Part shown: positions 1,045 to 6,701 of the stretch, in pieces | Layout of the letters: each line of letters opens with the position of its first letter | Numbering within the stretch: position 1 is the first letter of the stretch | DNA from: a virus | Lineage: Duplodnaviria > Caudoviricetes | IMG/VR virus record: IMGVR_UViG_3300033067_002127 | Coordinates: 1-41,169 of that record | Length of the DNA stretch: 41,169 bases | Strand: one strand, 5' to 3' | The notes under the pieces: model-generated | The model's input: only the letters and a program-made list of their open reading frames with translations | Told to the model about the DNA's origin: nothing | Databases searched by the model: none | Translations under genes and position numbers: made by a program

Positions 1045-1088
1045 GATACAAACCAGAAATATAAAACTCACAAAACTATAACACGATG

Positions 1089-1113
1089 AAGGGGCTTTTC
1101 AGCCCCTTTTTTT
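1089..1113. terminator. Intrinsic terminator-like hairpin, originally directly after the endolysin stop
   Basis: AAGGGGCT-TTTC-AGCCCCTT followed by a T run on +. The same GGGCTTTTCAGCCC core recurs after the capsid gene. Confidence 0.7.
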
Positions 1114-1115
1114 AT

Positions 1116-2347
1116 CAACTTCGCCGTAAAACCCCGCCCCGTTTAGGGCGGGGATATAAGGCGGCGATACCGAAGGGGTTCGGCTGTGGCGAAGACCAGT
1201 CTAACACCATCATGGTATCGCTAAAAAAGCGTGAACTTAGGGCTGAAAATTGGTAGAGTATAACCATGAAAACACTCAAATTGCGGATTAAAGACAAACA
1301 CGCCAAGGTGCTGATTCAGTTAGCATCAGAGGTCAATTTTGTCTGGAATTACTGCAACGACTTGAGCTACAAACATCTGCAACGCACAGGCAAGTTCTTT
1401 TCCGCATTCGACATTGCTGCCTACACCAAAGGGGCAAGTAAGTCAGGCTTGAGTTTGCACAGCCAGACCATCCAAGCCATCACCGAAGAACTGGTGACGC
1501 GGCGCAGGCAATTTAAAAAAGCCAAGTTGAATTGGCGTGTATCCAATCCAAAATCGGCCAAAAAATCACTGGGTTGGATACCGTTCAAAGCATCAGGCAT
1601 TCAGTACCAAAACGGCCAAGTTAAATACGCAGGGCAATGGTTTGGTCTGTGGGACAGCTATGGATTGAGCAAGTACAAGGTACGGTGTGGCAGCTTCAAT
1701 CAAGACTCTCGTGGTCGTTGGTATGTCAATCTAGTGGTGGATACACCTGAACCAGCCACGACCACCGAAGGCAAAACCTCCATAGGCATTGATTTAGGCT
1801 TGAAAGATTTTGCCACACTGTCGAATGGTCAAAAGATCGAAGCCCAGCGCACCTACCGAAAATATGAGCAAAAACTCGGGATTGCTCAACGTGCCAAACA
1901 AAAACAACGGGTAAAAGCAATCCATGCCAAGATTAAAAACATCAGAAATGATTTTTTGCACAAACTCAGCCGTCAGTTGGTCAATGACCACGCGGCAATC
2001 TTCGTTGGCAATGTAAACGCCAAAGGCCTAGCACAAACCAAACTGGCAAAGTCAGTGATGGATGCAGGCTGGACGGCGTTTAGAACTATGCTCAAGTACA
2101 AATGCGATCACGCAGGTGTATGGTTTTTCGAGGTCAACGAAGCGTATACCACCCAGACTTGTTCGCGCTGTGGCTCACGCCACAATAGTCCGAAAGGTAG
2201 AGCAGGTTTGCGAATAAGAGAATGGACTTGTCAGCAGTGCGGTACACTGCATGACCGCGACGTGAACGCCGCAAAGAACATTCTCGCGCTCGGACATGAG
2301 CGTCTTGTAGAAGGAATCCCCGTCCTTTAGGACGGGGAGGATGTCAA
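1116..2347 (+). mobile_element. IS200/IS605-family element, tnpB-only (IS1341-like, non-autonomous)
   Basis: TTAT target at 1112-1115; left-end hairpin CCCCGCCC-CGTTTA-GGGCGGGG 1132-1153; right-end hairpin TCCCCGTCC-TTTA-GGACGGGGA 2317-2338; terminal TCAA 2344-2347; no tnpA; no target duplication. Confidence 0.88.
1266..2330 (+). CDS. tnpB: RNA-guided endonuclease TnpB
   Basis: N-terminal LKLRI..L...VNFVWN, RuvC-I IGIDLG, zinc finger CSRC..CQQC, RuvC-III DRDVNAAKNI; 354 aa. Confidence 0.95.
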   Translation: MKTLKLRIKDKHAKVLIQLASEVNFVWNYCNDLSYKHLQRTGKFFSAFDIAAYTKGASKSGLSLHSQTIQAITEELVTRRRQFKKAKLNWRVSNPKSAKKSLGWIPFKASGIQYQNGQVKYAGQWFGLWDSYGLSKYKVRCGSFNQDSRGRWYVNLVVDTPEPATTTEGKTSIGIDLGLKDFATLSNGQKIEAQRTYRKYEQKLGIAQRAKQKQRVKAIHAKIKNIRNDFLHKLSRQLVNDHAAIFVGNVNAKGLAQTKLAKSVMDAGWTAFRTMLKYKCDHAGVWFFEVNEAYTTQTCSRCGSRHNSPKGRAGLRIREWTCQQCGTLHDRDVNAAKNILALGHERLVEGIPVL

Positions 2348-2367
2348 TTTTCCCAGTGAACGAAGTC
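2150..2367 (+). ncRNA. Predicted TnpB omega/reRNA (scaffold overlapping the tnpB 3' end and right end; guide about 2348-2367)
   Basis: Established architecture of IS200/IS605 TnpB. The 5' boundary is a guess; the guide is the flank after TCAA (TTTTCCCAGTGAACGAAGTC). Confidence 0.55.
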
Positions 2368-2835
2368 CCACTCGTTCTTCTCTCCCACTTTCCCATCCTC
2401 GTCCCAGTCGCCGCCCCAGCGCAGAAACGGCTTGCCTAACTCGGTGGCTGCTTTTTTAAAGGCTTCATCCATGGCCTTAAAGGTTGAAACGGGGGCTTGC
2501 CATTCCCCAACCACTGGTAGTAAATCAACCGCGTGGCTGAACCCATCTCGCTGCAGGCAATGTTTGCTGTTCAGGGGATGGCGCAGCCAAGTGACCTTTT
2601 TGGCATTGGGTTGTGCGTATTTCGCAGCACCACCAACGCGGGCGAGTTCCTGTACCGTTCGTCCTTTGCCCCAGTTGCGGTAGGCTTGATCTGCACTGCG
2701 GACGCCTTCAATTACTGAAAAGTCGTGGGCACAGTATTTGGTGAGTCCCAGAGTAACGATGGCAACCACGTCGGGATGAACTCCCTGCAGATTTGCTAGA
2801 GACCGGCGGCCAAATTTAAAGTTTGTCTTCGCCAT
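2344..2835 (-). CDS. Endolysin, M15-family L-Ala-D-Glu peptidase (T5 lys-like)
   Basis: FGRRSLANLQGVHPD, DFSVIEGVRS, SKH, HAVDL, RWGGDW, DFVHWE motifs. ATG at 2835 with upstream GGAG (the track start at 2886 is probably too long). Confidence 0.92.
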   Translation of the reverse strand: MAKTNFKFGRRSLANLQGVHPDVVAIVTLGLTKYCAHDFSVIEGVRSADQAYRNWGKGRTVQELARVGGAAKYAQPNAKKVTWLRHPLNSKHCLQRDGFSHAVDLLPVVGEWQAPVSTFKAMDEAFKKAATELGKPFLRWGGDWDEDGKVGEKNEWDFVHWEN

Positions 2836-3094
2836 AACCTGATGCTCCTGTGTTTGCGTTGAGTCGAAAAAGAAGGTTAGCGGCAAGGATAAGTCCCACA
2901 GCTAACAACAGTGTTAAAGCAACGCCGCTTTGCTGCTGCATCCCGATCCAGCAACAAATCAACCCAAAAGAAACCAGTGCGGCCTTTCGGTGTGTTGAGG
3001 TGTCGAACATTCGATTGGGTAAGAAAAACAGCAAGGCAAAGAGGATAAAAGCGGCAGCCCAATAATCACAAGGCTTGGTCAAAAGTTCAAACAT
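2816..3094 (-). CDS. Small multi-pass membrane protein (holin/antiholin candidate)
   Basis: 92 aa with three hydrophobic segments; overlaps both neighbours in the lysis cassette. Confidence 0.6.
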   Translation of the reverse strand: MFELLTKPCDYWAAAFILFALLFFLPNRMFDTSTHRKAALVSFGLICCWIGMQQQSGVALTLLLAVGLILAANLLFRLNANTGASGYGEDKL

Positions 3095-3485
3095 TTCGGT
3101 TTCCCCGAATTACAGCTAACACGATTGATGCGATCAGAGCGCGTACCTGCTCTGCGAAAATAGGCGCGGCAAAAGCAACCCCCGCTACTGAGATAATAGT
3201 CCCAAGTGTTAAAGATTGGCTACGGTCAATCGTGTAAACAAAGGCTACAAAACCAAATAGCAAACTCAACAAACCTTTAGTGTACCAGTTGGTGATTTTG
3301 CTGCCTTCAGGCTGAGGCACCAAAATACCCGCAACCGTTCCGAGAACAAGGGAAACCAAACAACCGGTGACGACCAGTTCGGTTCGATGGCTTACGACGA
3401 GAGCATCCAGAGGCCCTGCGTGCGCCAGATGTGCGCTGCTGAGGAGCACTAAGCAGCTCAGAATAAAAAGGTTAGACCGAAACAT
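3087..3485 (-). CDS. Membrane protein, putative holin
   Basis: 132 aa, signal-peptide-like N-terminus plus about three TM segments and a basic C-terminus; upstream of the endolysin. Confidence 0.6.
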   Translation of the reverse strand: MFRSNLFILSCLVLLSSAHLAHAGPLDALVVSHRTELVVTGCLVSLVLGTVAGILVPQPEGSKITNWYTKGLLSLLFGFVAFVYTIDRSQSLTLGTIISVAGVAFAAPIFAEQVRALIASIVLAVIRGNRNV

Positions 3486-3668: not shown

Positions 3669-5645
3669 ATGACCATAGCGATGCCCGCTTATTTGGCCAA
3701 CCGTGTGTTGCCAATCGAAGAATTTGCGCTACGCACCCTTGAAGAACGCTACTACCTGAAACGCCCCGACTATACGGAAACAGACCACAAACAGTGCTAC
3801 TGGCGCTGCGCTGTGGCGTTTTCAGACAACCTAGCGATGGCGGAACGGATTTACGAGTACATTCTGAAACGCTGGTTTGGCCCCGCAAGTCCTGTTCTTT
3901 CAAACGCTCCAGTTCGACTCACTTGGGGCTTAACCTTCAAAGCAAATTTTCTCCCTCAACGCTTCCTTGACACTCGCGGCCCTCAGCCCATTTCTTGCTT
4001 TGTCCCCTACGTCCCAGACTCTCGTGAAGGTATCTCCGACTATTATCGTGAGGCCATGTTCCTGAACTCGAATGGGGGTGGGATCGGGGCTGGTTGGAAT
4101 GCCCTGCGCGAGGCGGGCGCACCCACCAGCACCGGCCAGAAAACGGGCGGGGTTGTGGCTTTTGAAGGTGTACAAGACAAATTGGTCTTGGCAACCAATC
4201 AAGGCAGCAACCGCCGTGGAGCGATCATGTCGGAAATCGACGTGAGTCACCCTGAGATTCTCGAACACATTTCTTTACGCAACCCCACTGGTGACGCTAA
4301 TCGTCGGGCGCGTAATATCCATATCGGTGTCAATATCCCTGACGCATTTATGCGGGCAGTGATTCTTGATCAACCATGGGATTTGGTGTCTCCTTACGAC
4401 GGGCAGGTCAAGGCTACTGTACAAGCGCGGACTCTCTGGGAAAAAATCCTTGAGATCCGCGTTGGTAAAGGTGGCGAACCAATGCTCCACTTTATTGACC
4501 GCAGTAATGAGATGATGCCTGCGAGTCAAAAAGCGAAAGGATTACGAGTCAACAACTCGAACCTCTGCCATGAAATCACGCTCGCCAATAACGCCGAACG
4601 AACTGCGGTCTGCTGCCTATCCTCTATTAACGTGGCTCATGCTGATGAGTTCATGGATCATCCTTTGTTTATTGAGGATGTGACCCGTTTTCTCGATAAC
4701 GTCACTGAGTATTTCATCCAGACTGCCTGCTATAACATCGCGGATAAAGAAGAATTTTCTCGATTCCGTCGGGTCGTGGCTGAAGCCTTGGAGACTATCG
4801 AAGTCACTGATCCAGAGCAGGTTCAAAAAGTCGCGGACTACACCCTGCGCAACTACATCAAAGCAATGTCGAAAGCCGTTTATTCGGCCAGCCAAGAGCG
4901 TGCTTTGGGTATTGGCCAAATGGGTGTTCACACCTACCTGCAAAAGAAAGGTATCGCCTACGAATCTCGTAAGGCTTTGATCTTTGTTGAAAAGATTTCC
5001 AAGCACATCCAGACTCAGGCTCGTGCTGCGAGTAAGAAACTGGCCAAGGAGCGGGGTGAAGCACCAGACATGGTGGGCACCGGCTACCGTAACAGTCACT
5101 TGACCGCGATGGCACCAACCGCCACCAACGCCATCCTCACCCAGAACTGTTCCCCCAGTGGTGAGCCCGTATTCCAGAACGTGTACGTTCACAAGACGCT
5201 TTCGGGCAGCTTCTTGGTCAAGAACCCCCAACTGGAACAGGATCTTGAAAAGCTCGGCTTAAACACCGAGATTATTTGGAAAAGCATCACCCAGCATGAT
5301 GGTTCGATCCAGCATCTGGACGGCGTGCCCGAAAACTTCAAGAAGATCTACAAGACTTCCTTTGAGATCGATAACCGTTGGATTATTGATCATTACGCGA
5401 TTCGGCAGGGTTACATTTGCCAAGCGCAATCCCTGAACCTGTTTGTGTTACCAACGGCCAGCAAAACCTACGTCAACATGCTACACATTTTAGCTTGGCG
5501 CAAAGGCTTGAAAACAGTCTACTACCTCAAGTCCAAAGGTTTGCGTAGCGGCTTTAACCAAGCCCAAGACTCCACCAATGGTATCAAGATCGACGCGAAC
5601 CACATGGAAGTCGATTATCACCAATGCCCATCCTGTGAGGGTTAA
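3669..5645 (+). CDS. nrdA: Ribonucleotide reductase class I alpha subunit (no ATP cone)
   Basis: PASPVLSN, PISCF, GGGIG, RRGA, SNLCHEI, VCCLSS, APTAT, KTVYYLK and C-terminal CPSCEG; RBS AAGGAG. Confidence 0.96.
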   Translation: MTIAMPAYLANRVLPIEEFALRTLEERYYLKRPDYTETDHKQCYWRCAVAFSDNLAMAERIYEYILKRWFGPASPVLSNAPVRLTWGLTFKANFLPQRFLDTRGPQPISCFVPYVPDSREGISDYYREAMFLNSNGGGIGAGWNALREAGAPTSTGQKTGGVVAFEGVQDKLVLATNQGSNRRGAIMSEIDVSHPEILEHISLRNPTGDANRRARNIHIGVNIPDAFMRAVILDQPWDLVSPYDGQVKATVQARTLWEKILEIRVGKGGEPMLHFIDRSNEMMPASQKAKGLRVNNSNLCHEITLANNAERTAVCCLSSINVAHADEFMDHPLFIEDVTRFLDNVTEYFIQTACYNIADKEEFSRFRRVVAEALETIEVTDPEQVQKVADYTLRNYIKAMSKAVYSASQERALGIGQMGVHTYLQKKGIAYESRKALIFVEKISKHIQTQARAASKKLAKERGEAPDMVGTGYRNSHLTAMAPTATNAILTQNCSPSGEPVFQNVYVHKTLSGSFLVKNPQLEQDLEKLGLNTEIIWKSITQHDGSIQHLDGVPENFKKIYKTSFEIDNRWIIDHYAIRQGYICQAQSLNLFVLPTASKTYVNMLHILAWRKGLKTVYYLKSKGLRSGFNQAQDSTNGIKIDANHMEVDYHQCPSCEG

Positions 5646-5648
5646 TTT

Positions 5649-6701
5649 ATGACCGCTTTGACCGCCCCTGAACTCCACGGCTCGTTGACTTTGACTCAAG
5701 AGCGTGACTACTACCAGCCGTTTCGTTACCCTCAAGCCTTTGAGTTTTACAAGGCTCAAGAGGCCATGCACTGGACTGTCGAAGAGACCCCCATCGGTGA
5801 AGACAAGATGGATTGGGACTTCCGACTCGACAACGGCACCAAGAATGTCTACGCCAGTGTGTTGCAGTGGTTTACCCAGCAGGATGTCAACGTAGCTTCT
5901 GGCTATTACGACTGCATCCTCCGCTGGTACAAGCAGCCAGAGCTGCGCATGATGTACGGCCACGTTGCCCGTACCGAGGGGTTGCACGTTGATGCGTACT
6001 CAACCATCCCCGAACAGCTCGGTTTGCCCGACACGGATTACGCTGGTTTCTTGAAGATCAAAGAGACCGCAGACAAGCATGAGTATTACACTCAGCGCGT
6101 GGAAGGGGCTACCGCCGAGGAACGCTGCACGTTCCTGATCCGCAACGGTGTCTTTGGTGAAGGTGTTTCACTCTACGGCCTCTTCACAATCTTGATGAAC
6201 GCGCAGCGTTTTGGCCACATGAAAAACCTTGGCCAAATGATCACTTGGTCAGCGCGTGATGAAGACGTGCATGTCACCATCAATCTCTGGACGTTCAAAA
6301 CCGAACTGGAAGAAAATCCAGAAGTTTGGAACAAGGCATTCAAGGCCAAGATTTATGACATGGCTCGCCACGTTACCACAATGGAAAAGGCTTACGTCCG
6401 TGAAGCGTTGCGTCACGGTGAGCTTCCTGACCTGACCTTGAGCGATCTGGAAAAGTTCATTGAGTTCTTGGTGGATTGGCGTTTGACCCAGATTGGCTTG
6501 AAGCCGATTCATGGCGTTCAGGAAAATCCCTTGAAATGGATGGACTGGGTGTTTAGCAACAGCGAACTGACCAACTTCTTTGAAAACCGCAGTGCGGCCT
6601 ACGCCACCGGTATGCTGCAGGGGGAGTGGAAAGACAGCTACCCACCCTCAACCGAAGAGTGGGCAACCTTGGAACCGATGTACTCCAAGAACACCATTTA
6701 A
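5649..6701 (+). CDS. nrdB: Ribonucleotide reductase class Ia beta subunit
   Basis: YQPFRYP..W, QDVNV, EGLHVDAY (radical Tyr), EGVSLY, RDEDVH and NFFENR motifs. Confidence 0.96.
   Translation: MTALTAPELHGSLTLTQERDYYQPFRYPQAFEFYKAQEAMHWTVEETPIGEDKMDWDFRLDNGTKNVYASVLQWFTQQDVNVASGYYDCILRWYKQPELRMMYGHVARTEGLHVDAYSTIPEQLGLPDTDYAGFLKIKETADKHEYYTQRVEGATAEERCTFLIRNGVFGEGVSLYGLFTILMNAQRFGHMKNLGQMITWSARDEDVHVTINLWTFKTELEENPEVWNKAFKAKIYDMARHVTTMEKAYVREALRHGELPDLTLSDLEKFIEFLVDWRLTQIGLKPIHGVQENPLKWMDWVFSNSELTNFFENRSAAYATGMLQGEWKDSYPPSTEEWATLEPMYSKNTI

Follow-up and report, generated by a model that had tools for sequence, protein, structure and literature searches.

Among described IS200/IS605 elements, the tnpB-only (IS1341-type) ISGst2 of Geobacillus stearothermophilus offers a close comparison for the locus analysed here. 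As described in PMC10055086, this type of element has hairpin ends, generates no target duplication, inserts 3' of a short motif and encodes a tnpB-overlapping RNA whose guide is the right flank. Every IS605-group insertion carries a guide against its own empty site, and cutting by TnpB at vacated sites is a documented role (PMC10055086). The element that we describe shares these features, and TnpB2 of ISGst2 likewise uses TTTAT. However, our element lies in a phage, encodes a relocated-Glu nuclease whose activity is a prediction, and has a right end that forms the stop of a gene.

Further comparisons come from the nuclease. A glycine at the canonical Glu position with a Glu 44 residues later is shared with RIIr TnpBs, for whose clades this relocated arrangement has been described (PMC10691335), and with TnpB2/TvTnpB, of which the relocated-Glu TvTnpB has been demonstrated to be active (PMC10530073). 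TvTnpB uses NTGAC, whereas the element here follows TTTAT.

In the IS605 plasmid system, TnpB alone, without TnpA, favours plasmids that carry the IS over those that lack it (PMC11870625). Like our element, for which this is a prediction, that system and the 'non-restorative homing' of PMC13565253 involve cutting, independent of TnpA, of a homologous replicon that lacks the element, and the 2026 review in which that term appears names co-infecting phages as a theoretical TnpB target. The drive was shown for plasmids, whereas the phage group of our element bears no sign of spread. Phage homing endonucleases, free-standing or within introns (such as SegF and SegB of T4), also place a nuclease near a conserved gene, where it could bias inheritance in co-infection cheaply (PMC13565253). 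In contrast to these protein-guided enzymes with one fixed site, the element has a target set by RNA, and it would be neutral through stop-codon mimicry rather than through splicing.

Here, we analysed a linear virus record of 41,169 nucleotides (the window; about 50% complete, with tail, capsid, terminase, primase and ribonucleotide reductase genes present). We consider it likely that a tnpB-only IS605-group element of host origin inserted backward in the last codon of the phage's lysin gene, survived because the site was harmless, and encodes a predicted cutter of the empty allele. A single case of this kind is ordinary; the locus offers a clean example with empty-type siblings available. 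The TTAN target and the TCAN end both read as stops on the other strand, so elements can occupy gene ends almost free of cost. Should TnpB also cut co-infecting siblings, the plasmid gene drive would extend to phages as a natural retargetable homing system. In mostly open-access literature, supplements aside, we found no published report of a stop-preserving IS605 insertion and no published demonstration of TnpB homing between phages.

Borders of the element and the exchanged stop codon

Table 1. Features of the element and its lysin flank (positions in the window)
Feature	Position	Strand	Basis or remark
Phage hairpin with T/A run, just past the original lysin stop	1088..1113	.	terminator-like; stem 1088-1109
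Target motif TTTAT (TnpA target; predicted TnpB TAM)	1111..1115	+	homologous left ends
Left end: GTAAAA 1126-1131, subterminal hairpin 1132-1153	1116..1165	+	near-identical in L066
Putative -10 box, 6 bases upstream of the tnpB start (ATG)	1250..1265	+	A74/A83/T79 percent, 47 homologues
tnpB, 354 aa, intact, opposite the lysin	1266..2330	+	ORF and family match: NF040570, 258 bits (cut-off 100)
Predicted omega-RNA scaffold	2237..2347	+	RF00062 match, covariation; overlaps tnpB 3' end
Right-end TCAA	2344..2347	+	minus strand TTGA: last base of the lysin plus TGA stop
Predicted guide	2348..2367	+	antisense to lysin codons D157-K/N163, H160 included; conservation ends at 2347
M15-type L-Ala-D-Glu peptidase endolysin	2344..2835	-	163 aa, ends HWEN; phrog_465 match

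The element is 1,232 bp long (1116-2347). The TTTAT at 1111-1115 is followed by CAACTTCGCC from position 1116, and the terminal TCAA by TTTTCCCAGTG from position 2348. We surveyed the boundaries of 63 viral loci and of the best 80 of 402 bacterial loci. The 61 distinct left-end contexts contained TTAT (50), TTAC (3) or no motif (8), and the left-end consensus of 46 host loci was, in percent, T89 T100 T100 A100 T98 then C98. At 59 host loci, right-end conservation stops directly after GGATGTCAA, and the DNA beyond is unconserved; TCAA is 100% conserved in these loci, which were picked by their right-end pattern. The subterminal hairpins of both ends (the right one at 2317-2338) are conserved among homologues, and the left-end layout common to L066 and the window is also found before tnpA in L144. 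Because the homologous ends and the consensus fix both borders, the element spans 1116-2347 without duplication, as the earlier note had placed it, 3' of (T)TTAT.

TCAA is also present at 1115-1118, and the window alone would permit borders at 1119-2347 with a 4-bp TCAA duplication; deleting 1119-2347 likewise leaves the lysin in frame, and the empty gene would already have ended HWEN with no swap of stops. However, among the 50 homologous left ends with TTAT, CAA follows in only 6, sibling lysins end HWEK rather than HWEN, and the family generates no target duplication (PMC10055086). The homologous left ends and the HWEK siblings effectively refute this model, which we regard as very improbable.

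Deletion of 1116-2347 in silico reproduced the predicted HWEK-TAA ending with the lysin length unchanged. With the element in place, the minus strand reads HWEN-TGA, confirming that the stop comes from the element and that one residue is altered. The swap follows from the two motifs: TTAT is ATAA and TCAA is TTGA on the other strand, so wherever a gene ends in A-TAA, an insertion exchanges TAA for TGA, and the sole other change is at one third codon position. In the lysin, TTTAT includes on the minus strand the third base of the Lys codon plus the old TAA. The earlier note called the element near-neutral, and the position of its K-to-N change does vary among K, N and I in relatives. With HWEI at the end of six further lysins at about 84% identity, the last residue is evidently free to change. 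The hairpin said to lie beyond the original lysin stop is present, but its coordinates needed correction: the stem is 1088-1109, and the T-run is on the + strand, where it provides most of the target motif.

The lysin start is most likely the ATG at 2835, which would give 163 aa as in homologues; lysins of named phages are less than 50% identical. Upstream of the lysin are two small membrane-protein-like genes of no named family (2816-3485), a possible holin pair. nrdA and nrdB (3669-6701, + strand) lie between the tail and lysis genes, opposite to the late operon.

Across the surveyed loci, GTAAAG left ends (L001, L007) follow TTAC, and GTAAAA ends mostly follow TTAT, with the exception of L073. 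This pairing fits a base-paired choice of target, and TTAT and TTAC alike give TAA on the opposite strand. Hairpins were not significantly enriched upstream of insertion sites (46 vs 137 sites, p 0.09). One viral contig has two right ends 700 bases apart (L147/L148), possibly from tandem or nested elements.

Nuclease, guide RNA and host origin

TnpB has the RuvC residues D176 and D332, G248 at the canonical Glu position with the alternative E292 44 residues later, and a C4 zinc finger of two CxxC motifs. The alternative-Glu motif occurs in 131 of 143 related sequences. By residues, the Gly at RuvC-II and the alternative Glu would be compatible with the RIIr-5 clade. TnpB is a predicted RNA-guided nuclease of the relocated-Glu type with intact catalytic residues. 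A dead nuclease, as G248 might suggest, was rejected: E292 and both Asp are present, and such TnpBs have been described, one of them active. Differences from three host TnpB copies, synonymous vs amino-acid, were 44:20, 87:36 and 91:31. The closest natural solved relative by sequence is ISDra2 TnpB (PDB 8bf8, 8h1j; E 4e-26). A single-sequence structure model of the window TnpB reached pLDDT 34 and was not used for catalytic geometry. ISDra2 TnpB has another catalytic arrangement and another target motif than the window TnpB.

The predicted RNA scaffold at the right end comprises a stem, the right-end hairpin and a pseudoknot that pairs with the terminal ATGTC. The match to RF00062 (HgcC; 2237-2360) is weak, with an E of 1e-5 and a score under the gathering cut-off; this family is named in work on RNAs at tnpB 3' ends (PMC4615843). 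The 5-pair pseudoknot is 100% paired in 30 sequences with 9 compensatory cells, and pairing across the whole structure, which was picked by eye from the same alignment of related sequences, is 94%; both sides have changed in 12 of 19 pairs. Short of proof, covariation supports the RNA structure of the right end. The predicted guide begins where conservation ends and matches the empty lysin end, in agreement with the guide proposed in the earlier note. It spans H160, W161 and E162 of the lysin; from its motif, we take H160 to be the probable third zinc ligand. No self-target (motif plus at least 5 guide bases) was found in the window.

A conserved -10-like box lies 6-7 bases ahead of the tnpB ATG in the window (1250-1268) and in homologues, which suggests that tnpB of this branch has its own promoter in the left end and a leaderless mRNA. 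The consensus promoter scan did not pick the box at 1250-1265; the promoter and terminator scans ran at chance level (2 vs 2.4 and 6 vs 4.3).

The nearest copy of the element, with 91% nucleotide identity across 1,098 bp and the left end among the matched bases, is in an uncultured Moraxellaceae genome, and the element is multi-copy in four of five such genomes (up to 16 matches). These copies point to a Moraxellaceae host as the probable source of the element, and hence suggest that the phage likely infects an Agitococcus-like Moraxellaceae bacterium. In keeping with the description of the element as TnpA-less, Y1 transposase is absent from this contig of a roughly half-complete record. tnpA is present in two of the five related genomes and in L144, and one Moraxellaceae genome has a tnpA-bearing, autonomous relative whose left end is the same and which likewise follows a hairpin and T-run. 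From the shared ends and the many distinct flanks, we infer mobilisation by Y1 TnpA in trans.

Insertions at stop codons

How often would such an insertion be tolerated? Of 175 TTAT sites in 2400-33648, with ORF starts taken as maximal, 170 are within ORFs, 3 preserve a stop and 2 are intergenic. With 170 of 175 sites in ORFs, surviving insertions should often occupy stops. To count them, we enlarged the survey by 49 loci from a right-end pattern scan and counted identical flanks once; the host loci derive from the best 80 of 402, and the loci are mutually non-independent. Loci were dropped before the count if the right end was not found (15 viral, 9 host), tnpB was incomplete (2 viral, 5 host), the end did not start with TCA (3) or the flank was shorter than 400 bases.

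Among 76 distinct viral flanks, 12 have a right end that forms the stop of an antisense ORF of at least 100 codons; the other two frames give 4 and 2 of 76, and unoccupied TTAT/TTAC sites give 8 of 347 (Fisher p 1.9e-5). In host genomes, the corresponding counts are 2 of 58 and 8 of 549 (p 0.25); the two host genes are ftsK (L081:3590-5566, Acinetobacter pollinis) and a DUF1877 gene (L119:3618-4118, Moraxella osloensis). The 12 viral ORFs comprise 8 clear family members (e.g. terminase, helicase and tail proteins), 2 weak matches and 2 without a match. Since the left end and motif were located in only one of the 12 viral cases (L001), some may instead be genes truncated by elements that use different motifs. 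Seating on stop codons recurs, and is likely a passive way for such elements to persist in packed phage genomes.

Sibling phages and the use of the nuclease

The empty allele anticipated in related phages was found at the level of protein. The 90% lysin cluster has three members: the window's own HWEN lysin and two siblings, P0001 and P0122, which are 95-97% identical to it and have the HWEK ending expected of the empty allele. The DNA junction, however, did not appear in the contigs of seven runs: the joined 1115-2348 sequence was absent from contigs of four (X1, X2, X22, X14), two (X11, X8) held no matching sequence, and a 151-base piece from X13 ends short of the junction. No DNA relative of the lysin was found in viral contigs, and 56 pattern matches in metagenome contigs yielded none that was confirmed. 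The insertion is present in one of the three close lysins, the one ending in N, and its TnpB is a singleton at 90% identity (nearest relative 91% among the matches listed), which indicates no spread in this small sample.

Other siblings have altered lysin ends. Five lysins stop before the target, with three breakpoints (after residues 75, 121 and 131), and their replaced C-terminal tails gave no matches. At least three of the five siblings apparently have another lysin in addition, 45% identical to the resident one (among 15 listed members of a cluster of 20), a pairing that rests on longest contigs of equal size (9280, 78186 and 18783). The 9,280-bp X14 contig, compared with window positions 1109-2474, comes from a sibling about 90% identical (118 of 1,167 bases differ) with no tnpB at the site. 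Its order is the terminator, an approximately 50-bp fusion of left and right ends a few bases from the same TTTAT, 585 bases, and the resident lysin from 2474; the last 126 bases of the lysin (2348-2473) are thus replaced by 585 that are known by length only and that a 166-codon gene would fit. This replacement could reflect a simple exchange of modules, escape from TnpB or the capture of a gene beside an element.

What we observe are both ends, the target motif, the exchanged stop, the HWEK siblings, the catalytic residues, the covarying RNA and the recurrence at stops; the history that we favour would run as follows. Host TnpA acting in trans would have inserted the element after TTTAT, changing the lysin from K to N and retaining H160, and the insertion likely survived because this site was among very few harmless ones. 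The left-end promoter would express TnpB, the RNA would read about 15-20 nt into the lysin end, and TnpB would cut where TTTAT adjoins that sequence. The chief use of cleavage is likely restoration of the element after excision, and copying into a near-identical co-infecting phage would be an occasional side benefit rather than a weapon evolved by the phage. Cutting of element-free sister phages is plausible; given the vacated-site role of TnpB and the plasmid drive, cutting of an HWEK sibling is a fair prediction that needs no special adaptation.

The earlier note went further and proposed a homing or competition device that could cut element-free siblings during co-infection. On this reading, siblings cut in the catalytic end of the lysin would either gain the element or escape by replacing the lysin. 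The plasmid drive without TnpA (PMC11870625) makes such a device conceivable, HWEK siblings exist, and the guide covers codons for H160, W161 and E162. The five truncated lysins, with a second lysin in three, and the X14 contig, with its exchange beside an end fusion, are what such cutting might leave behind, and the passive model leaves the five lysins without a target-bearing end unexplained. However, lysin modules are often swapped among phages, the link to a second lysin depends on matching contig sizes, and the inserted X14 bases are known by length only. Many siblings, if as divergent as that of X14, would mismatch the guide anyway. Nor does a guide against the empty site distinguish a device, since every IS605-group insertion has one, and a seat on a stop is expected from survival. 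Because TnpB is a singleton and the motif would be lost through synonymous substitutions in either the Lys codon or the stop, a real drive is argued against, and with the insertion itself a singleton among siblings, we think the device rather unlikely. Its broader form is unlikely to hold and should be read as speculation: stop-parked phage TnpBs would be cost-free, RNA-guided homing endonucleases directed at conserved ends of essential phage genes, siblings would have escaped by dropping the targeted lysin end and adopting another lysin, and TnpB would drive an arms race among phages.

Conversely, tnpB might be unexpressed or inactive in infection, and the insertion recent and neutral. The promoter is a prediction that the scan missed, G248 replaces the canonical Glu, and IS608 TnpB was inactive in one assay (PMC10055086). 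Against this, E292 and both Asp are present, the alternative-Glu motif is widespread among related sequences, and the element retains an open reading frame, its two ends and its RNA structure; we judge a silent element improbable.

The truncated resident lysins are the proteins P0003, P0128, P0134, P0135 and P0136, and the second M15 lysins are P0092, P0264 and P0265, paired as P0134/P0265, P0135/P0092 and P0128/P0264. A search for close DNA of the second lysin returned none, with 35-40% identity only. A tail of 8 residues distinguishes its 166-aa form from the 158-aa forms, in which it is missing.
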